This document shows positions 20,401-56,976 of a DNA stretch of 64,000 nt, piece after piece. The first letter of the stretch is position 1, and each line of letters starts with the position of its first letter. The translations under genes and the position numbers were made by a program. The notes under the pieces are model-generated. The model searched no databases. It was given only the letters and a program-made list of their open reading frames with translations, and was not told where the DNA came from. This DNA comes from Anaerolineae bacterium (lineage in GTDB: Bacteria > Chloroflexota > Anaerolineae > S140-20), in contig JALUTT010000059.1 in NCBI GenBank assembly GCA_027021705.1, positions 69,687-133,686 on the forward strand, read 5' to 3'.

Positions 20401-23400
20401 AGCGCCTCATCGTTCCAGGTGACGTAGAAGGTCTGCTCGGCGCTCAGGGCGGCCCGGCTCGTCGCGTTGAGGCTGACCCGCCGGTCCACGCCGACCCGGG
20501 TGCAGCCGCTCTCCATCCAGCCGTCGTAGAGGCCGTCCGGGTCGTCCAGGACCACATAGTCGGGCGTGGTGGGGCCGTCCACGTAGACGGGGCCGATGCT
20601 CTGCGCCGTCTGCTGGCCGTACACGTCCCGGCAGGTGACCTGGACCGTCACCTTCTGGCCGTCGCCGGCCTGGTATTGGGCGCTGCGCGTGAGCGGGTCG
20701 TGCGCGGTGATGGTGGTCGTCACCGTGCCGGTCGTCTGGGCCGTCCATTCGGCCAGGTAGTCGGTCAGGCCGCTGCCGTCGCTGCTGGCGGTCCAGGTGA
20801 GGGTCAGCGTGGGTGAAAGAACGCGCAGGGTGTCGCCCGGGGCGAGGGGGCTACCGCCGCTGGTCAGGGTGAGGGTGACCGGGGCGGGTGGCACTACGTC
20901 CACGGTGATGACTTCGGTGACCTGCGCCGTGTGCCCGGCGATGTCGGTGGCCTGCGCCGTGACGGTGTAGGTCTCGCCGTCGGGCAGCGGCCCCGTGCCC
21001 AGGTACCAGGGCACGACCCACGGGCCACCGGCGGAGCCTACACTCCCCTCGAAGTGGCGCGTACCGGTGACGACGACCCGCACCTGGGGCCGGCTGACGG
21101 TGTCGGTGACCAGGCCGGTCAGATCGAGGATATCCGGCGCGTGGTAGTGGGTGGTGGTGAGCAGTGTGGGGGTGATGACGATGCTCGGCCGCTGGGCGTC
21201 CACGGTGACGGTGAGGGTGTCGGTGGCGACGTTCCCATCCCAGTCGGTGACCCGTGCCTGGAGCCGGTGCTGGCCCTCGCCGGCCGGGGTCCAGTTGGTG
21301 GACCAGTATGTGCCGGTGACGGTGCCGCTGGCCCAGGCGTCGGTGTAGAGGGTGGTGCTATCCACGGTGACAGTGAGGGCCCGCAGCGAGGAGGTGACCG
21401 ACTCGGCCTGGCCGGTGACGGTGACGGGGTCCAGGCTGCCCAGCACCGGCGGCACGCTGAGGATGGAGACGGTGAGGCTGGGCTGGCTCTGGGCCTGGAC
21501 CAGGGCCGTCGTGTGGAGGGTCTGTTGAGCGGAGGCCAGGGTGACCGTGGTGCAGTTGCCGGCCGTGTCGCAGGCTGTGGCCTGCTCGCCGCCGGCCGGG
21601 TCGCAGGCCGCAGTCCCCCCGCCGCCGGCCCCGACCAGGCTCAGCACCCGCAGCCCGTAGTCCCAGGCGGCCACGTAGGCGTAGTCGCCGGAGACGGCGA
21701 CGCCCCGGGCGTAGCCCGGCGTGTAGAGGCCGTCTGTGAACTGGGGGTTGGTGGGGTCGGAGACGTTGATGATGGGCAGGCCGCTGAGGCCATCGGCCAG
21801 GTAGACGGAACCTCCCTGGAGGGCCACATCCCCGGCATAGCCTGGCGTGTCGTAGGAGCCGACCTCGGTCGGGCTGGACGGGTTCGAGACGTCAATGACC
21901 CGCAGACCGGCCTGGCCGTCGGCCACGTAGGCGTGGGTGCCGGAGAGGGCGACGCCGACGGCATTCCCCGAGGTGTCGTAGGAGGCGACCTCGGTCGGAC
22001 TGGACGGGTTCGACACGTCAAGGACCCACAGGCCAGCGCTGCCACCAGCTACATAGGCATAATTGCCGGAGACGGCGACGTCGTAGGCCGGGGCGATGCC
22101 GGGCTCAATGCCCAGGAGAACTGGGGAGGCGGGGTTAGAGATGTCGAACACCTCCAAGCCATTTCCCTTATCGGCCACGTAGGCATAGTCCCCCGCGACG
22201 GCGACGCCCTGGGCATCCGGTGTCTCGGCACCCCCGACCAAGGTCGGATGGGTCGGGTCTGAGACATCCACGATGACCAGGCCGTCGGTATCGTCGGCCA
22301 GGTAGACATAGTTGCCGACCACGTCTACGCCCAGCACCTTCCCCGCTGTGTCGTACCGGCCCACAAGGGCCGGCTGGTCGGGCTTCGAGACGTCCACCAC
22401 GTAGAGGCCGCTCTCCCCGGCGGCGACGTAGGCGTGGGTGCCGGAGACGGCAACGGCGTGGGCGACGCGGGCGGAGCCCAGAGCGCCGACCTCTTCGAGC
22501 GTTGCGGGGAAGAGGTCGCAGACGGCGGTGAGTTGGTAGAGGGGCCGCGCCGTGTCGGACGTCCCGCCGGAGAGGGCGGCGTACCAGGGGGATTGGAAGT
22601 AGCGGTGCTCGGTGGCAACGCCCACGCCGCACGGCGTCTCAAAACGGTCCGCGTCCAGGCTGAAGTCCTGGGCGACGGTGGTGTAGCGGCAGTAGGGACC
22701 GACGATGGTGCGCGTCATCGTCAGGCGCGGGGCCAGGGTGTCCACCTCGCCGCGCCACGCGCCCCGGCTCTCCACGGAGTTGTCGGCGTGGCCGGCCGCG
22801 TCCCAGCCGCGCAGGTCGAGCCGGTAGGAGCCCTCCAGCCCGGCGGGCGGCGCGTCGGTCCAACTGGCCAGTTCCCCACCGGCGGGGGCGACCGTCGTCT
22901 CGCGCCACCGGCTCTGGTAGAGGGCGTTGATCTCGATCTCCGAAAGGGCGCGCGGGTAGATGCGCACGTCGTCCAGCCGCCCCTGCCAGTACGCCAGCGT
23001 AGATGGGTCGGCGGTCACGTCCCAGCGGAGCGTGGCCGAGGTGGAGGCATCGGCGAAGGTGTGGCTGCCGGATCCGAGGGTGGTATCGAGGGCAAAGGTG
23101 CCCAGGCGAACGATGCCCAGGCCGAGGTGCTTCCACACCTCGAGGTTGGCCGAGCCACAAAAAAGGATAGCCTTGTCGAGGGGGATGCTCTCGTCGGGCG
23201 TGGGCCAACGCGGGGCAGAGTACACCCACCTGCCGTCGAATTTAACGACGTAGCCAAAGGTCCACCGGGGATGGGGGATGAATTCTCGTAGGCTGAGGAC
23301 GGCGCAGGAGGAGTTGGCGACCGCATCCCGACCGATGTCGAACCGCTGCGCAGGGTAGGGGGTGCGGCCGGCGAACTGGTCGGTCGCGGCCCGCTCGACG

Positions 23401-26400
23401 CCGTTGACGTAGATCCGATACGTGGTGCCGTCGAAGGTGACCGCTACGTGGTTCCAGGTGTTTTCGGTGAGGATGCTGCCGGTGGTGAAGGTGTCCAGGT
23501 TGCTACCGTCGCCAAAGCCGACCTGCAATGCCGTGCGGTTCACGACCCGCAGGAAGGGGTAGGCGTAGGGAGCCTCGCTGTAGGCCCCGCTGCCCAGGAT
23601 GGGGTGGGCACCGTCGTCGGCCGGGGTGGGGTAGACCCAGGCCATCTGGGTGAAGCGGCCACGGCTCAGGTCGAGGCCGGCGTCCGGGGCGACGCCGACG
23701 TAGTCGTCCGTGCCGTCGAAGGGCAGGGCGTAGGCGCCGGCCGGGCCAGGCACGGCCTGCCTGGTGGGGTCATCCGCGCCAGTGTGCAGTGTGCCGTGGT
23801 GCTCCCAGCCCGAGACGTCGTCCAGGCGCGTGCCGTCGGCGGCCCAGGCGGTCTCGAAGGGCAGCCGCAGCAGCGGGCCGGCGCCCAGGTAGAGGGTTTT
23901 GATCTCGTCGGCGGAGAGGGCGCGGTCGAAGACGCGCACCTCGTCGATCCGGCCGGCAAAGGGTTCGTTGCCCCAGAGGTCCCGGCCGATGAGCAGGCCA
24001 TCGTCGGTATCGGGGTTGGCGGGAGCGCTTCCGGCGATGGTCTGGCGGGCCTGGCCGTCCACGTAGAAGGTGACGCTGTTGTCGGCACCCATCACGGCGG
24101 CGACGTGATACCATACCCCCGGCCTCAGTTGGACGTTCGTGGTGTCGTACTCCTGCACGCCAAAGGTGGCGAAGCGCAGGCCGGCCCCATTGAGGAAGAA
24201 CCCGAACCCGTCCACGCTGTGCCAGCGCTCGGTGCCGAGGATGCGCTGCACGCCGGTGACCCGGTCGGGGTTGATCCAGGCCATCACGGTGAAATCGTTG
24301 GTCAGTCGGTTGATGGCGCTGTTTCTGATCCAGACCTGGTCGTCCAGCCCGTCGAAACGGGCCGCGCCGCCGTCGTGGCCGGTCGCTCCGACGGTCGGGC
24401 AGAGCGCGCCATAGCACCAGCCATCGTTCCCCTGGCCGGAAACGTCCTGGAAGGTGACGTTGCCCCTCCGGTCGCGGTCGTCCTCGAAGGGGAGGTGGAG
24501 GAGTTCGCCGGCGGGCGGGGTCTCGTTGTAGAAGGGCGAGCCGGGCAGGGTGGACTCAAAGGCCGCCTCGACGCGGGAGACGCCGGCGACGGAGACATCC
24601 GGGCAGGTGGACGCGGTGGCGATAAAGGGCACGGTGGTCCCGGCCCCGTAGTTCCCATCCCACGTGGCCACCGTCGTGCCGCAGACCTGCACCGTGCCGG
24701 TCACGCCGCCGTCTCCGCCGCTGTCGCTCAGGCCGACCTGGCAGGCCGCGCCCTGGTGGACCCGCCCGTCCCACGTGTAGGTCGTCTGGGAGGCGAAGGC
24801 CCCCTGCTCGACCCAGTAGAGCGTCCTGCCCAGGCACCGGATCTCGATGCCGGATTCGTCGCCCGCTGCGTCGGTCGTCCAGGAGACGACGAGGGGCACG
24901 GGCCGGTCGGTGACGTCGCCCTGGAGGGTGACCGTGCCGGTGAGGGTGGCCGTGGGGATGCCCGCCAGGTCGAGGTGGGCAGCGGGGGCGGCGGCGTCCA
25001 CGTAGACGGTCGCCAGGTTGATGCTTGTCTGGTTGCCGACCCGGTCGGCGGCCTCGGCGTGGACGGTGTAGGAGCCTTCGGGAGCGCCGTCGGCGAAGAC
25101 GTACTCGACGCTCCACGTGTCCCCCGTCACCGTGGCGGCCTGGGTGCCCTGGCCGGCGGGCGTGCCGTCGGGGGTCAGCAGCGTCACCCGGAGGCTGCCC
25201 GCGGCCAGGCCGCTGCCGGCGTACCCGCCGGGGAGGGGCGGGTCGCTCACCGTGCCGCTCAGGCGCACCAGCCAGGCCTGTCCGATGGTAGGATGGGGAG
25301 CGGCGTCAATGCGCGAACCGTTGGCCGCGTCCAGGGTCACCACGGGGGGCGTGCCGTCCACGTAGAGGGTGTAATCCTGGGGCGAGCGCTGCCGGTGGCC
25401 GACCCGGTCCACGGCGCTGGCGCGCAGGGTGTAGCGGCCCTCACCGGAGGGGGTGAAGGTGGGGCACCAAGCAGCGCCGTTCGGAGCATCCATGCAGCGC
25501 GGGGCACTGACCCAGGTAAAGGCGCTCTGGCCCTCCCGGCGGAAGCCCAATCCCACTTGCATCACGTCGGAGGTGGGGTCGAGGGCCTCGATGTGCATCA
25601 CCACGTCCTGCTCGGCCCGGTAGTCGGGCGCGTCGGTGCGGACGGAGCGCAGGACCGGCGTGGGGTCGTCGGCGTCCACGGTGACGGGGTGGCTCTGGCG
25701 GTCCTCGGCCCACTTGCCCTGGTAGAGGAAGATCTCGCGCACCTGGCGGGGCGAGAGGGCATAGTCGTAGAGGGTGACCTCGTCTATGCGGCCGACGAAG
25801 GGCGTGAAGGCGTCCCACTGGCGCCCGATGTTGAGCGGGGTGTCGCTCTGGCAGACGGTGCCGGCGAGCGGCACGCTCCGATCCAGAGTGCCGTTGATGT
25901 AAAGGTTGACCTGCTGCCCATCGTAGGTCATCATCACGTGGTTCCACCGGTTCAGGAGCAGTTCACCCACGCTGTCGTAGGCCCGCCAGGTAGTGCAGTC
26001 CCCGGCCTGGAAGGAGAAGCGCACCCGGGTCGAGTTGGGCAGCAGCATCAGGCTGTAGTTGCGTTCCCCGCCGGTGCTGTTCTCTTTGGCCAGGATAACC
26101 TGTTGCTCGTTCTTGAGTTGGGTGGGCATGACCCACGCGCCGACGCTGAAGGTGGTGACGTCCAGGGCCGAGTCGTCGGGGACGGTGATGATGTCGTCCA
26201 GGCCGTCGAACTGGGGGGCCAGGCCGACCCGCCCCCGGGCGCCGACGGCCGGACAGGCGGCGCTGTCGCCACAGGCGCCGTGGTTGTCGTGGCCCGAAGC
26301 GTCCATGAAGAACGGCTCCCACCAAAACTGGGCCACGGCGTCGCCGGTGCGGTCGTAGTATTCCACCTTGATGGGGTGGACGCCCTGGGAGAGGGTGCGG

Positions 26401-50745: not shown

Positions 50746-51021
50746 GGTGGTCGTGCACCCCCTGTCGAACCGGCCCTCAGCGACTTACCCGGACCTTTCG
50801 GCTCTGGCCAGGCACCCCTGCGGCACCCGGAGGGGACTCCTTACCGTTGCTTCCTCTCGGACCTGGCGGGGTTCGGAGGCCTCCGCCGCGCAGGACCCAA
50901 CCTTCATCGCCGTCGGGCCAGGGCAGGCTCGCTGGAGCACGGCCCTCGAGGGGGAGTTCGACCCCGCTATGGCGGATTGCGGGTACAGGGCACCGCCAGC
51001 TCCCCGTCTAGCACGACCACC
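50746..51021 (-). ncRNA. ffs: Large bacterial SRP RNA (with Alu domain)
   Basis: Minus strand starts GGTGGTCGTGCTAGACGGGGAGCTGGCGGTGCCCTGTACCCGCAATCCGC and has helix 8 CCAGGTCCGAGAGGAAGCAACGG. Termini are complementary. Confidence 0.92.
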
Positions 51022-51237: not shown

Positions 51238-51324
51238 CGGAGAGGGTGGGATTCGAACCCACGGGGCATTGCTGCCCACGCGCTCTCCAGGCGCGCGCCT
51301 TAGGCCAGACTAGGCTACCTCTCC
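51238..51324 (-). tRNA. tRNA-Ser(GGA), CCA not fully encoded
   Basis: GGAGAGG acceptor stem, anticodon arm CGCGC-CTGGAGA-GCGCG, long variable arm, GGTTCGAATCCC T-arm, 3' end GCCT. Confidence 0.95.
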
Positions 51325-51777: not shown

Positions 51778-51806
51778 TTGCCCACCCCGGAAAGACAAGG
51801 TATAAT
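51778..51806 (+). promoter_or_regulatory. sigma70 promoter of the coiled-coil/OB-fold/TctA-like unit
   Basis: TTGCCC-17 bp-TATAAT. Confidence 0.65.
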
Positions 51807-51884
51807 CTGTCATAACGGCGGCATCGGGGGGCAGGTCCCACGAGGCTGCTTGTGGCTTCCCTTCAGCATCAGGAGAGGTGTGCG

Positions 51885-52928
51885 ATGGCAACCCCAGTGA
51901 ATACCGAAGCTCGTGAGCCCCAGGAGCAGATCCGAGAGGTTGCCCTCCAAGTCTTCCAGGAGCAGCGGGATGCCCTCTGGCGGGAGATCGTGGAAGGTGA
52001 GCTCGGGCGCTTGCGGCGAACCTTCGAGGCGGAGTTCCGGCAGGTGTGGAGGGCTATCGAGGCGTTAACCGAGGCCCAGAGACGTTCTGAAGCGCGGCTG
52101 AGCCGGCTGGAGGCCACCGTCCAGGCCCTGGCCGAGGCCCAGCAGCGAGCCGAGGAGCGGCTGAGCAAAGTTGAAGAACGGCTGAGCCGGCTGGAGGCCA
52201 CCGTCCAGGCCCTGGCCGAGGCTCAGCAGCGTACTGAGGAGCGGCTCAACCAGTTGGCCGAGGCCCAGCAGCGAGCCGAGGAGCGGCTGAGCAAAGTTGA
52301 AGAACGGCTGAGCCGGCTGGAGGCCACCGTCCAGGCCCTGGCCGAGGCCCAGCAGCGAGCCGAGGAGCGGCTGAGCAAAGTTGAAGAACGGCTGAGCCGG
52401 CTGGAGGCCACCGTCCAGGCCCTGGCCGAGGCCCAGCAGCGCACCGAGGAAGCTCTGGTCCGTCTGGCCGAGGCTCAGCAGCATATGGAAGAGCGCCTGG
52501 ATCAAGTAGACAAGCAGCTCAGCACCATCGGCAACATCTTGGGACTAGACGCTGAGGGAGATGCCCAGGAAATCCTTGCCTTCATCCTGGAGCAAAAGGG
52601 ATACCGCTTGCTAACTCCCCCCCACGGCCTGGACATAGACGGCGAGGTGGACCTGGTGATGCCGGTGAAGACACCGGAGGGAGAACGGGCCTGGATCGTG
52701 CTGGAGGCCAAGAAGCGGGTTCGGCTCAAGGAGTTGCGCCGTTGGGCGAAACGGCTGCAATCCAAAGCTTTTCTTCGACGCCTGAAAGAGGCAGGCATCA
52801 CCAAACCGCTGATCCCTTACCTCTTTGGGCTGCGCGTCTACGCCGTCGTGGACACCGAGGCCCGCAAGCTGGGCATCGGCGTGCTGGACCCTGACGGAGA
52901 GCGGGTGGCCCCCCGGGCGATACGCTGA
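51885..52928 (+). CDS. Heptad-repeat coiled-coil protein with C-terminal PD-(D/E)XK-like domain
   Basis: Repeats AEAQQRAEERLSKVEERLSRLEATVQAL, C-terminal GEVDLV...IVLEAKKR. SD AGGAGAGG. Confidence 0.75.
   Translation: MATPVNTEAREPQEQIREVALQVFQEQRDALWREIVEGELGRLRRTFEAEFRQVWRAIEALTEAQRRSEARLSRLEATVQALAEAQQRAEERLSKVEERLSRLEATVQALAEAQQRTEERLNQLAEAQQRAEERLSKVEERLSRLEATVQALAEAQQRAEERLSKVEERLSRLEATVQALAEAQQRTEEALVRLAEAQQHMEERLDQVDKQLSTIGNILGLDAEGDAQEILAFILEQKGYRLLTPPHGLDIDGEVDLVMPVKTPEGERAWIVLEAKKRVRLKELRRWAKRLQSKAFLRRLKEAGITKPLIPYLFGLRVYAVVDTEARKLGIGVLDPDGERVAPRAIR
52096..52445 (+). repeat. Intragenic tandem repeats built from 21-bp modules (84-bp main unit)
   Basis: GGCTGAGCCGGCTGGAGGCCACCGTCCAGGCCCTGGCCGAGGC recurs at ~52096, 52180, 52306 and 52390. 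Confidence 0.9.
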
Positions 52929-52983: not shown

Positions 52984-54360
52984 ATGAGCGCCCACTGCCC
53001 CAGTTGTGGCCGCTTCGTTGGCCCTTACGAGCGATGTCCCTACTGTGGTGCCAACCTCGCCGGCCGCCTCTCCCTCCGGGTTCTCAAGCTCGGCGCCCTG
53101 ATCCTAGCCCTGGCCGGGTTCGCCCTCCTCTGGTTCGTCGCTGCCCGCTCTTCCATCCCCACCCTCTCCCCTCACGAGATCGAGCGGATGATGAACCTGG
53201 CCTACGTGCGGGTGGTGGGGCTGGTCACCCAAGGACCAAGTTACGATCCCGAGACGGCCTACCTCAGCTTCCGGCTGGAGGATGACGGCGGCGAGGTTCG
53301 GGTGATCGCCTACGCCAACGAGACCCGCGCCCTCCTGGAGGCCGGTTCTCTCCCCGGCCTGGGGGATTGGGTAGCCGCCGTCGGCACCCTCCGCATCCGT
53401 GAAGGCGTGCCGACGTTGATCCTCGATGCCCCCCATCGGCTGACGGTCGCCCGGCCAGAGCCCAGCCCCCGCGCTATTGCAGAGGTCGGCCCTCAGGATG
53501 CGTTTCGCCGGGTTACCGTGCGCGGTCAGGTGCGCGGCAATCGCCGGCCCTACGCCGGGCTGACCCTCCTGCGGCTGCGCGATGCGACAGGGGAGATCGA
53601 GGTCGCCATCCCCGACGACGTGACGGCGCTGACAGGACCCCTGGAGGTGCCCCCGATCGGCCAAGCCGTTCAGGTCACCGGCACCGTCACCCTCTACCGG
53701 GATCGGCCGCAGATCAGCTTGACCGATGCGGCGGAGATAGCGTCGCTGGAGGAGCCGGTCCCCATTGCCGAGCCCATCCCTATCGCCGGCCTGGGCAGCC
53801 GGGTAGGCCGTTGGGTGGAGGTGAGGGGGCAGATCCGACGGCTCTCTCCCTTCTCGGCCGGCCTCAAGGTGACGCTGGAAGACAGTACGGGACAGGCAAC
53901 GCTCCTCCTCTGGCAATCGGTCTACGAGATGCTGACCGACCCGGGGGCTTGGCAGGAGGGGGCGACGGTGGTGGCCCAGGGGGAGGTCAACCGCTATCGA
54001 GGTGAGATGGAGGTGGTGCCGGAGCTGGCTGGTGACGTGATGGTGGTGGTTCCGCCCGAAGAGCAGCCATCCCTCTCCCCCGGCGATCTCTCCATCGCCC
54101 TGTTGGGGCGGACCGTCGAGGTCGAAGGGGTGCTGGGGGAAAGGCGTTCCTTTAGCCGGGGGGTGACCTTCCGCTTGCAGGGCGGGGGCGGCACCGTGGT
54201 CCTGTTGCTGTGGCAGGAGGTCTACCAGGACCTGCCCGACCCGAAGGCCCTGCGCCCCGGCGTCCGGGTGCGGGTGCGAGGGAAACTGGACCGCTACCGG
54301 GGCGAGTTGGAGGTCATTCCCCGTCAGGGCCGCGACGTGCAGATCGTGAGCGAGCCGTGA
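52984..54360 (+). CDS. Zinc ribbon + TM helix + four OB-fold nucleic-acid-binding domains
   Basis: CPSCG..CPYCG and one TM, then four units of V.V.G.V...L.D.tG...G..V.V.G....YRG..E. ATG at 52984. Confidence 0.8.
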   Translation: MSAHCPSCGRFVGPYERCPYCGANLAGRLSLRVLKLGALILALAGFALLWFVAARSSIPTLSPHEIERMMNLAYVRVVGLVTQGPSYDPETAYLSFRLEDDGGEVRVIAYANETRALLEAGSLPGLGDWVAAVGTLRIREGVPTLILDAPHRLTVARPEPSPRAIAEVGPQDAFRRVTVRGQVRGNRRPYAGLTLLRLRDATGEIEVAIPDDVTALTGPLEVPPIGQAVQVTGTVTLYRDRPQISLTDAAEIASLEEPVPIAEPIPIAGLGSRVGRWVEVRGQIRRLSPFSAGLKVTLEDSTGQATLLLWQSVYEMLTDPGAWQEGATVVAQGEVNRYRGEMEVVPELAGDVMVVVPPEEQPSLSPGDLSIALLGRTVEVEGVLGERRSFSRGVTFRLQGGGGTVVLLLWQEVYQDLPDPKALRPGVRVRVRGKLDRYRGELEVIPRQGRDVQIVSEP

Positions 54361-54389
54361 AAGACGGCCGATGCGACGGAGAGGTCTCG

Positions 54390-55706
54390 ATGCTCTTCTG
54401 GCCTTCTCTCGGGTACGCGCTGATAGGGGCGCTCCTGGCCGCCCTCCTCACCCCCATCCCCGCCCTGCACGTCTACAACGTGGCCGGCCTACTCCTCCTC
54501 GCTTACGATGGGCTGCGTCCCCTCCTCCCGCCTGAGGGGTTGGCAATGTTCCTGATGGGAATGGTGACCGGCTACGCGATGCTCAACGCCATCCCTGCTG
54601 TCTTCTTCACCGCTCCCGACGAGAGCGTCCTCTTCGTCGTCCTGCCCGGCCAGAAGTACCTGCTCCAGCGCCGGGGGTACGAGGCTGTGCTGCTGACGGG
54701 TCTCGGAGGGCTGGGAGGCGTGATGGTGCTGGTGGCCTTGGCTCCTGTGGCCTCCCGCCTCTTTCCCACCCTGCGGGCCATCCTGCAACCCCACTTGCCC
54801 TGGATCCTGGTGACCATCACGGCCTACATGCTGCTATCGGAGTGGCCCAAAGGGACGGACCGGGCTCGGACTTCCTGGGGCAAGCTGGCCGAGGCGTGGC
54901 GCTCGCTGGGAGCCGGCCTGTTCACCTTCTTCCTCTCCGGCTTGTTGGGGATCATCCTCTTCCGTCGCAACTTGGTCCCCGTGACGGTGGCCTATCAGGG
55001 ATTGCTGCCGGCCTTCCTGGGGCTCTTCGCCATCCCCTGGCTGTTGCAGAACATCATCACCCGTATAGAGCTTCCACCCCAGTACGTCGCCTCTTCGGTG
55101 GACATCTCCCTCCCCCTGCTTCTGCGCGGCGTGGCCGCCGGAGCCCTGGGCGGCTTCCTGGCCGCCTTCTTCCCCGTCATCACCGGAGGGATCGGCGGGT
55201 TCCTGGCCGGTCACGCCACCGCCCAGCGGGATGACCGCCTCTTCCTCCTCTCCCAGGGCGCTTCTCGGGTCGTCTACTACGTAGGCGGGTTCCTGCTCTT
55301 CTTCGTGCCGGGGCTGCACCTCACCCGAGGGGGGATGGCCTGGATGGTGGACCCCCTCTACCGTCCGGGCGGACCGGAGGCCCTCTACCGGGCGGTGGCG
55401 GCCCTCCTGGCGGCCGGCCTCCTCGCCTTCTTCCTGCTCCCACCGCTGACCCGGCTGGCCCTGGGACTGGTAGGGCGTCTGGGCTACCGGACCACCTCGG
55501 TGGTCAGCCTGGGCCTCGTCCTGGCCCTCCTCCTGGGGCTGACGGGACCGGGAGGGCTGCTCGTCGCCGCCGTCGCCACCGGCATTGGCCTCATCCCCGT
55601 CTTGTGGGGATCCCGCCGGATGAACGGGCTGGGCCTGTTGCTGATTCCTGTGACGCTGAACATGCTGGGGGTGGGGAGCCGGGTGGCCGGCTGGCTGGGG
55701 CTCTGA
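54390..55706 (+). CDS. TctA-like (COG1784/DUF112-type) multi-pass membrane protein
   Basis: TPIPALHVYN, AIPAVFFTAPDES...VLPGQKYLLQRRGYEAV and >10 hydrophobic segments. An alternative GTG start at 54357 overlaps the upstream stop. Confidence 0.75.
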   Translation: MLFWPSLGYALIGALLAALLTPIPALHVYNVAGLLLLAYDGLRPLLPPEGLAMFLMGMVTGYAMLNAIPAVFFTAPDESVLFVVLPGQKYLLQRRGYEAVLLTGLGGLGGVMVLVALAPVASRLFPTLRAILQPHLPWILVTITAYMLLSEWPKGTDRARTSWGKLAEAWRSLGAGLFTFFLSGLLGIILFRRNLVPVTVAYQGLLPAFLGLFAIPWLLQNIITRIELPPQYVASSVDISLPLLLRGVAAGALGGFLAAFFPVITGGIGGFLAGHATAQRDDRLFLLSQGASRVVYYVGGFLLFFVPGLHLTRGGMAWMVDPLYRPGGPEALYRAVAALLAAGLLAFFLLPPLTRLALGLVGRLGYRTTSVVSLGLVLALLLGLTGPGGLLVAAVATGIGLIPVLWGSRRMNGLGLLLIPVTLNMLGVGSRVAGWLGL

Positions 55707-55712
55707 GGCGGG

Positions 55713-55740
55713 TTGAATTTGGGGGAAGGGGTGTTACAAT
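55713..55740 (+). promoter_or_regulatory. Putative promoter of the downstream lipoprotein/hflX genes
   Basis: TTGAAT-16 bp-TACAAT with TG extension. Confidence 0.5.
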
Positions 55741-55794: not shown

Positions 55795-56976
55795 ATGGAG
55801 TTGCGAGGATGGTGGCGAGGAGGGCTTGTGGGCATCGCGCTGCTGGTGGTACTCGCCTGTCAGATCGGCCGGCCGCCGGGCGGGGTCACCCCAGGGCCGA
55901 CACCGACCCGCTGGCTGCCGCCGACCCCGACGGGAACGCCGACTTGGACACCGTTGCCTCCCCTGAGCGTGGTCACCTTTACGCCGACGCCGACCGTCGT
56001 GCTGCCCACCCGCACGCCAACGCCCCGGCCGTCGCCCACCCCTACCCGGGGACCGACGCCCACGGTCGCCGTCGCTCCCCGTTCGTTGCAGGAGCGGACA
56101 GGTGCCGTGCTGGCCCGGCTGGCTGCCTTGGGGATCGAACCTCACTGTCTGCTCTGGACCGACAGCGATGGCGACGGTGAACGGGAATGGGTGGGCCTCT
56201 ACCGGGAGGCCGTCGGTTCACCGGTGCTGGGTTTTGTCCTGGACGGCGAGACGCTCTACACCTTGAGCCCGCCCGACACGCTAGGCGTCGGGTTGGGGGA
56301 GCGTCCCACCTGCAACCTGCAAGTGCGCCCGCTCAGCCCTTACCCGGTCATCCTGGTGTGGGGCAGCGCCGGTGCCCATCTCTCCCTGCTCCACCTCTTC
56401 CGCTGGGACGGTCGGGCCTACCAGGTCGTGGGGGCCTTCGGGGGAGATGGTGGGATTTCCTTCGTCGCTCCCGACCCGGGCTCCGGGTTGCCTCAGGAGA
56501 TCATCGTCCGGCAACGGGGAGACCCGGACCGCTTCGATCGGGAGGAGGTCTGGCAGTGGGACGGGGAACGCTACCGGCTGGACCGCTCGCGCTACGTCTT
56601 CAGCGCCCTGCGGGCACGGGGTGCTCCCTATCCCGACCGCTCCCCAGGGGACGCGGTCATCTCCTTCTACCTGGCCATCAACGACCGGGACCTGCCGGGG
56701 GCCTACGCCCTCTTCACGCCCCAGGCCCAGGCCAGTCGGCCCCGGGCGCGATGGTATGCCGGATTCGCCACCACGTTGGGCGTCGAGGTCAACGAGATCC
56801 GAACCGTCAGCGAGACCGCTGAGGACACAGCTACCATCGTGGTCCGCATCCGGGCCCAGGACAACCGGGGAGCCCGCGTTGAGGTGACTTCCTGGGAGGT
56901 AACCTGGACCGTGGTCGCCACGCCCGACGGCTGGCGGCTGGACCGCTCCACCCCAAAGCGGATCGGGAGCGAGTGA
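55795..56976 (+). CDS. Hypothetical lipoprotein with Pro/Thr linker
   Basis: Lipobox VLAC, PTPT repeats, DSDGDGE motif, C-terminal FYLAINDRD..AYALF domain. Confidence 0.7.
   Translation: MELRGWWRGGLVGIALLVVLACQIGRPPGGVTPGPTPTRWLPPTPTGTPTWTPLPPLSVVTFTPTPTVVLPTRTPTPRPSPTPTRGPTPTVAVAPRSLQERTGAVLARLAALGIEPHCLLWTDSDGDGEREWVGLYREAVGSPVLGFVLDGETLYTLSPPDTLGVGLGERPTCNLQVRPLSPYPVILVWGSAGAHLSLLHLFRWDGRAYQVVGAFGGDGGISFVAPDPGSGLPQEIIVRQRGDPDRFDREEVWQWDGERYRLDRSRYVFSALRARGAPYPDRSPGDAVISFYLAINDRDLPGAYALFTPQAQASRPRARWYAGFATTLGVEVNEIRTVSETAEDTATIVVRIRAQDNRGARVEVTSWEVTWTVVATPDGWRLDRSTPKRIGSE

Follow-up and report, generated by a model that had tools for sequence, protein, structure and literature searches.

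The 64,000-nucleotide stretch of DNA analyzed here (the window) comes from an Anaerolineae bacterium (contig JALUTT010000059.1, positions 69,687 to 133,686) and carries, at 52984..55706, two neighboring genes that are the subject of this study. Gene 1 (52984..54360, + strand) encodes a membrane-anchored zinc-ribbon protein of 458 residues that has four OB folds (P0001), as indicated by the translated open reading frame (ORF), Pfam, and AlphaFold2. Gene 2 (54390..55706, + strand) encodes a short and divergent permease of the TctA family, of COG1784-like type and 438 residues long (P0002), as indicated by Pfam, AlphaFold2, and a phylogenetic tree. Gene 1 runs from an ATG at 52984 to a TGA stop at 54358-54360; since gene 2 begins with the ATG at 54390, the two genes are separated by 29 nucleotides on the + strand. 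A preliminary description of this DNA had placed gene 2 directly after gene 1, with either a 30-bp gap or a GTGA overlap, and this layout holds: an alternative GTG start of gene 2 at 54357 does overlap the stop codon of gene 1. We favor the ATG, because the closest homologue of the gene 2 product (94% identity, 100% coverage) also has 438 residues. A GGAGAGG motif resembling a ribosome-binding site can be read directly in the sequence 5 nucleotides upstream of this ATG (54378..54384, + strand). The G+C content of the window near the pair is ~63-72%.

The architecture first proposed for the gene 1 protein, i.e., a CxxC..CxxC ribbon, one transmembrane helix, and four OB folds, is recovered consistently by Pfam, hydropathy, and AlphaFold2. 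The OB-fold family PF01336 matches the protein in four separate stretches (E 2.7e-27, 95 bits for a 27-bit cut-off), and the AlphaFold2 model, built on an alignment of 20 rows (mean predicted local distance difference test score, pLDDT, of 88.4), shows a helix at residues 31-55 followed by four beta-barrels. The ribbon is a CxxC-x9-CxxC motif (CPSC...CPYC, residues 5-21, 52996..53046, + strand), in which C5, C8, and C21 are invariant among 20 homologues and C18 is conserved in at least 90% of them. Pfam zinc-ribbon families match it weakly (E 0.06-0.8), and the motif CPSCGR..CPYCGA is also present in two other bacterial loci (L045 and L091). The single transmembrane helix (residues 31-55 in the model, 53074..53148, + strand) has its hydropathy peak, 2.43, at residues 36-54. 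The OB folds follow one another on the same strand. OB1 (residues ~60-160, 53161..53463) has its modeled strands at 73-156 and a net charge of -5, OB2 (residues ~161-262, 53464..53769) contains the best PF01336 stretch (177-248), with strands at 176-254 and a net charge of -2, OB3 (residues ~263-360, 53770..54063) has strands at 277-356 and a net charge of -6, and OB4 (residues ~361-458, 54064..54357) has strands at 377-456, a net charge of +3, and an isoelectric point of 10.0.

The structural relatives of the OB array are proteins that bind DNA. Foldseek ranks DNA-bound proteins with tandem OB folds highest, at 8-20% identity: p204 HINab (double-stranded DNA, E 1.2e-15), RPA70 (single-stranded DNA), Teb1, CST, POT1, and the RPA of Pyrococcus. 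A sequence search of the PDB with P0001 gave no match. The gene 1 protein shares with RPA70, POT1, CST, Teb1, and the HIN-200 proteins the fold and its tandem arrangement, but it differs from them in being anchored in the membrane and in having three acidic domains out of four, besides the low identity. OB3 and OB4 both have conserved aromatic positions (FS.G, LLLWQ.VY, Y.GE.E), the conserved motifs of OB3 being FS.G..., LLLWQ.VY, and Y.GE.EV.P. We found 248 homologues of gene 1, and the named ones are proteins of Chloroflexota with 455-800 residues. The number of OB repeats differs widely between close relatives; the DPANN forms have one OB stretch per protein, P0001 has four, and the 949-residue ORF of L045 has six.

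Other family matches of P0001 fall short of their thresholds. The xseA model TIGR00237 (NCBIfam) reaches 36.5 bits, under its 180-bit cut-off, and covers the OB part only. Many gene 1 homologues are labeled 'YhcR' by the JGI, but the gene 1 protein differs from YhcR in lacking its type of nuclease/esterase domain, as neither Pfam nor NCBIfam revealed a catalytic domain of the YhcR or ExoVII type in P0001. Residues 364-439, in OB4, resemble DUF4131 (24 bits, E 3.5e-5, under the 31.6-bit cut-off), and several gene 1 homologues have a precomputed match to the same family. In Pfam, the N-terminal region of ComEC goes by the name DUF4131. This sub-threshold match proves nothing.

Gene 2 belongs to the TctA family, but lies far from its canonical members. 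P0002 matches PF01970 at E 4.7e-26 (91.8 bits, cut-off 28.9), from position 1 to 418 of 423, and thus resembles the permease of canonical TctABC systems in covering almost the whole profile; it matched no NCBIfam family. We sampled 151 genomes of the phylum, 22 of which had a PF01970 match. Canonical full-length TctA proteins in this sample score 357-556 bits and have open frames of ~500-520 residues, whereas the four proteins of the gene 2 type score 67-127 bits. The separation is reversed with profile A1, made from the gene 2 type and its distant relatives, which gives 394-500 bits to three gene 2-type proteins and 18.5-47.7 bits to 21 canonical ORFs. P0002 also shares short motifs with the short archaeal forms (alignment A2), namely PG.H near positions 24-27, APD near 75-77, and GLF at 211-213.

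The phylogeny leads to the same division. We built a quick maximum likelihood tree of 88 rows (LG+G4, with branch support only from the Shimodaira-Hasegawa-like approximate likelihood ratio test, SH-aLRT), in which 14 canonical TctA rows split from 74 short forms (SH-aLRT 100). All 15 short forms from bacteria fall into a single clade (SH-aLRT 99), composed of P0002, 11 rows from the genomes of relatives, a Candidatus Euphemobacter locus, and two fusion proteins described below, and this clade is sister to the one holding all 59 sampled archaeal rows (SH-aLRT 95). These groupings are subject to the facts that the archaeal rows come from among the matches listed by one motif scan, that many rows have an odd composition, and that one of the fusions (P0323) sits on a long branch. 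Bit scores, the A1 profile, and the tree agree with the kinship to COG1784-type proteins, over canonical TctA, that had been suggested at the outset. The view that COG1784 is a mostly archaeal family was also sound: in the available portion of Makarova et al. 2015 (PMC5898192), COG1784, equated with arCOG04469 and pfam01970, is described as euryarchaeal and mostly encoded by stand-alone genes. The idea of an archaeal-type system in a bacterium stands as far as the family is concerned; a transfer from archaea is not shown by the tree, in which the bacterial proteins lie beside the sampled archaeal clade, as its sister, and not inside it. Judged by its sequence, P0002 is not a canonical TctA, and the label 'tripartite tricarboxylate transporter permease' given to genes of this type is corrected by these results.

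The structure of P0002 has no close solved counterpart. Its AlphaFold2 model is all-helical (pLDDT 93.2). The PDB gave no match to P0002 by sequence, nor any Foldseek match to the model at E <= 0.001. VIA-align ranks YS1, a transporter from barley, first (Z 11.4 over 278 aligned residues, root-mean-square deviation 5.6) and then carriers, namely INDY, TRAP, and Pho90, with Z values of 5-7, although the tool itself warns that Z values in this range are common for helical proteins. A fold of the secondary-transporter kind, lacking a close solved structure, is a fair reading of this model.

The partners of a canonical TctA are missing from the genome. The assembly has 5.19 Mb in 183 contigs and is 94.9% complete. 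Gene 2 is its sole match to PF01970, and searches for TctC (PF03401) and TctB (PF07331), which were positive in control genomes, gave no match in it. The lack of tctB and tctC near the pair, pointed out in the preliminary description, is therefore valid for the whole genome to the extent that the assembly covers it. Besides score and length (92 bits and 438 residues, against 357-556 bits and ~500-520 residues), gene 2 differs from canonical TctABC systems in having an OB array as partner in the place of a soluble binding protein.

Genes of the two families recur together across archaea and bacteria. A motif of the short permease type was back-translated and used to scan one genome for each species. 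It hit more than 120 places, and we fetched 80 loci: 77 archaeal ones (Methanosarcinales, Thermoplasmata, and DPANN groups) and three bacterial ones. This set is biased toward one motif and includes no Methanococcus, Halobacteria, or Thermococci. Among the 73 upstream neighbors that were scanned, 12 matched PF01336 at E <= 0.01 (ten of them over the cut-off), and ten of these 12 are DPANN proteins of 114-135 residues with a hydrophobic helix at the N-terminus. A profile of these ten DPANN proteins, run on the 1280 ORFs of at least 70 residues in the 80 loci, gave 31 matches, two of which (446-residue ORFs, E ~2e-4) were discounted. An OB-type ORF was found within 3.5 kb in 29 of the 80 loci (26 of the 77 archaeal and all three bacterial ones), a number that includes the ten seeds of the profile; it lies directly upstream on the same strand in 22. 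The early statement that TctA-like genes often sit next to OB-fold genes holds in that the association recurs in both domains, and needs qualifying in that it is not universal. The bacterial carriers are Chloroflexota, with further loci in Verrucomicrobiota and Candidatus Euphemobacter.

Co-occurrence among relatives tells the same story. The permease is encoded in ten of 41 related genomes and the OB protein in nine of these ten, while the OB protein was not found in any of the 31 relatives devoid of the permease; the 41 relatives are not independent of one another. The pair is adjacent in three genomes (G000, G310, and G317) and one gene apart in two (G305 and G311). Four genomes (G302, G325, G121, and G315) have them unlinked, either on separate contigs or with 2.5 Mb between them, so that the two genes co-occur even when they are not neighbors. 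They are likewise split between contigs in G015, a genome from another class. Two minor observations concern the loci of G305 and G311. The ORF between the OB gene and the permease in G305 (L151; contig C56, 4043-4504, 153 residues) is MscL-like by its first residues only. In G311 (L152; contig C18, 8849-9298), a 149-residue ORF ~3 kb downstream of the full permease copy repeats the C-terminal third of the TctA-like protein, with 53% identity to residues 268-438 of P0002.

Fused forms of the module also occur. Among the best 150 of 1174 matches in a search of 1.84 billion representatives, we found two proteins of this kind. One (P0269, 852 residues) has OB-like repeats, recognized by eye and with no Pfam match, followed by a TctA-like domain at 415-851. 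The other (P0323, 529 residues) has a zinc ribbon and a transmembrane helix followed by a TctA-like domain. Prediction of the complex between P0001 and P0002 gave a score of 0.65, against 0.01 for the best of three controls. Among 157 solved complexes, 116 attain this mark of 0.65, and among 215 mismatched pairs two do, a calibration that is rough because the alignments were self-supplied. Three runs shared at least 88% of the contacts, with a partner pLDDT of at least 80. The core of the predicted interface is the gene 1 helix (residues 30-59), packed against residues 182-204 and 391-405 of the permease; OB1 would also touch the permease, with residues 67-75, 112-113, 135-140, and 148-151 placed at permease residues 36-37, 219-223, 318-325, and 424-438. 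The PDB holds no solved complex similar to the pair by sequence. The modeling supports that the products of the two genes bind each other. We take the pair to be a real and conserved membrane module of two subunits.

Several features bear on which side of the membrane the OB array lies. The N-terminal flank of the helix has a net charge of +3 and the C-terminal flank of 0, and R28, R32, and K35, on the N-terminal side, are invariant among the gene 1 homologues. The OB proteins of L091 and L045 have the same bias. All four cysteines of P0001 are in the N-terminal ribbon, and the 402-residue OB part has none. The DPANN forms open directly with a hydrophobic helix that resembles a signal anchor. 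In P0323, covalent linkage puts the N-terminus of the permease on the same side as the C-terminal end of the anchor helix. From these features the OB array would face the outside of the cell.

A pair of similar composition is known from genetics in archaea. Fonseca et al. 2023, as given in the accessible parts of their paper (PMC10133366), describe in Methanococcus maripaludis an OB-fold protein that has one transmembrane helix (MMJJ_13020) and an adjacent TctA-like protein with 11 (MMJJ_13030). Deletion of either gene abolishes natural transformation and complementation in trans restores it, and a TctA-like homologue is also essential for transformation in M. thermophilus (PMC10133366). The connection with natural transformation in a methanogen, which the preliminary description had mentioned, is borne out by that work. 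The M. maripaludis pair and the one described here are alike in consisting of two neighboring genes, one for an OB-fold protein that spans the membrane once and one for a short permease of the TctA family, with TctB and TctC lacking. They differ in that P0001 carries a zinc ribbon at its N-terminus and four OB folds, in that the host is a bacterium with ComEA, ComEC, and DprA, and in that the permeases of bacteria fall into a sister clade of their own. Family and layout suggest that our pair is homologous to MMJJ_13020 and MMJJ_13030 themselves. Full-text literature searches, of limited coverage, returned no paper on the bacterial form.

The host also has conventional competence genes. On contig C70 there is a ComEC gene (22998-23819; Competence domain PF03772, 786-residue open frame) and, just upstream of it, a gene of the ComEA type with a helix-hairpin-helix domain (PF12836, 22032-22223). 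DprA, three good matches to T2SSE-type ATPases, and an SNase-domain protein are encoded in the same genome. The initial idea of a non-ComEC module fits the pair itself, in that neither P0001 nor P0002 matches the Competence or the helix-hairpin-helix domain in Pfam at E <= 1, but the genome as a whole keeps a normal comEA-comEC operon as well as dprA. The pair would thus add a route instead of replacing one. The proposed logic of the pair is that of ComEA and ComEC, i.e., a receptor for DNA that faces outward, is held by one helix, and feeds a polytopic membrane protein. The parts themselves are different: gene 1 lacks the helix-hairpin-helix, gene 2 lacks the Competence domain, and the permeases of the two systems are not homologous. 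As a side observation on this contig, a YdjM-domain match (PF04307, 38 bits; L204, 20294-20524), within a 338-residue open frame, lies ~1.5 kb upstream of the comEA-like and comEC genes, and PF04307 is also matched on contig C22; none of these matches is next to the pair. An ORF that follows the pair at a Verrucomicrobiota locus (L046) was judged YdjM-like by eye only.

Our results lead us to lean, if not strongly, toward the explanation that the two proteins form one membrane complex, and that this complex is the bacterial form of the OB-fold and short TctA-like module needed for transformation in archaea. Capture and import of nucleic acid is the best-supported function of the pair, and we think it somewhat more probable than its opposite. 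The ligand would be nucleic acid, and the cargo of the permease would be DNA instead of nucleotides or oligonucleotides. The zinc ribbon would remain on the cytoplasmic side, the one helix of gene 1 would pack against the permease, and the four OB folds, on the outer face, would capture extracellular nucleic acid. In doing so, the array may act like ComEA, or like the solute-binding TctC that is absent from the system, and the TctA-like protein would then receive the nucleic acid from it and import it. In this host, the pair would work alongside the conventional set of ComEA, ComEC, and DprA, not in its stead.

Import might also concern much smaller molecules. The TctA-like protein may carry nucleotides, oligonucleotides, or another polyanion, with the OB array (and perhaps the helix, in the role of TctB) replacing TctC, in what would be a system for nutrient scavenging. 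This explanation is a real possibility, which we nevertheless rate as rather unlikely. PF01970 is a family of carboxylate transporters, and the lack of matches to TctB and TctC in the genome implies that another binding partner is needed. The P0002 model looks like carriers (YS1, INDY, TRAP, Pho90) rather than channels, and how a predicted fold of the carrier type would serve as a conduit for long DNA is not obvious, which weighs against DNA import as well. The same can be said of the competence genes: ComEC is present for DNA itself, and, given comEA-comEC, dprA, and three T2SSE-type ATPases, a second importer is not obviously needed. The pair is also frequent in DPANN archaea, whose biosynthesis is reduced. 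In the literature, arCOG04469 is read as a likely carboxylate transporter in the portion of Makarova et al. available to us (PMC5898192), MMJJ_13030 is among the selenium-responsive transporter genes in the accessible text of a 2024 mSystems paper (PMC11097638), and the role of the archaeal proteins in transport is, in the parts of PMC10133366 cited above, only hypothesized by its authors. Against a small solute, the archaeal deletions abolish transformation by plasmids, which requires the entry of long DNA (PMC10133366). Moreover, the number of OB copies, from one in DPANN to four to six or more in bacteria, fits a polymeric ligand better, and the nearest structural matches of the array are DNA binders.

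The remaining explanations are less probable. If the OB array were in the cytoplasm, the complex might tether or process intracellular nucleic acid at the membrane, or regulate the permease from inside. The acidity of OB1-3 would fit such a location, and it is also a difficulty for DNA capture, since the isoelectric point of the OB part is 5.1 and OB4 alone is basic. The fusion P0269 as called opens with OB repeats, with no signal or helix at its N-terminus, which would put the array inside the cell if the protein is complete, but the gene call may be truncated. The DPANN anchors show a weak charge bias, which also counts against an outward array; still, these forms have a signal-anchor-like helix at their very start. 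In the bacterial proteins, the ribbon and the conserved basic residues lie across the helix from the array, and P0323 joins ribbon and helix to the N-terminus of the permease. We thus regard a cytoplasmic array as improbable. An ordinary carboxylate permease that lies beside an unrelated OB-fold gene by chance is more improbable by far, even if the public annotation of the homologues ('tripartite tricarboxylate transporter permease') and a PF01970 score over the cut-off speak for it. It is contradicted by the score, length, and tree position that set gene 2 apart from canonical TctA, by the missing TctB and TctC, by an OB protein present in nine of ten relatives with the permease and in none of the 31 others, by the fusions P0269 and P0323, by a pairing that spans domains of life, and by predicted docking at 0.65 when controls give 0.01. 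Some features of the distribution of the genes, on the other hand, speak against the leading explanation or limit the pairing. The two genes are unlinked in the genomes named above. We did not find the OB protein in G301, a permease-bearing genome that is 91% complete, or in G002, which is 93% complete and carries its permease gene at the end of a contig. The permease is rare, being present in four of 301 genomes of a sample of the phylum. Finally, most loci of Methanosarcinales and Thermoplasmata have no adjacent OB gene. This agrees with the report, in the same parts of PMC10133366, that M. thermophilus lacks a clear homologue of MMJJ_13020.

If the module does import nucleic acid, it may have broader implications. 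We consider it possible, if less likely than not, that some bacteria have a second, ComEC-independent importer of nucleic acid homologous to the archaeal one, in which a TctA-like protein with a carrier fold translocates the DNA captured by the OB folds and the helix of the OB protein is a subunit of the permease. To our knowledge, an OB-fold protein and a TctA-like permease are the only genetic candidates for the passage of DNA across the archaeal membrane. The presence of the module in bacteria, where it forms a separate clade, bears a zinc ribbon, and has larger OB arrays, allows the question of DNA passage to be tested in a second domain of life. The bacterial form also supplies many sequences for structural and co-evolution work, and points to a possible ComEC-independent route for the uptake of DNA or oligonucleotides in uncultured bacteria.

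Other genes surround the pair in the window. An ORF of 358 residues (51852-52928, + strand), with a promoter-like site upstream at 51778-51806, ends 55 nucleotides before gene 1. Its product has near-perfect tandem coiled-coil repeats (LSRLEATVQALAEAQQR.EERL...), and its C-terminal part has a D...EAK pattern that recalls PD-(D/E)xK nucleases, by eye only; its Pfam and PADLOC matches are coiled-coil noise. Downstream, a protein of 393 residues with a Pro/Thr-rich N-terminal part (55795-56976, + strand) belongs to no Pfam or PADLOC family, and its ORF has its own promoter-like site at 55713-55740. We place both flanking genes outside the module because tblastn gave no match to either in the loci of 11 relatives. 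In PADLOC, neither P0001 nor P0002 matches a defense family. Just upstream of this region, on the - strand, the window carries a bacterial large signal recognition particle RNA (50751-51016, 173.9 bits) and a tRNA (51238-51324).

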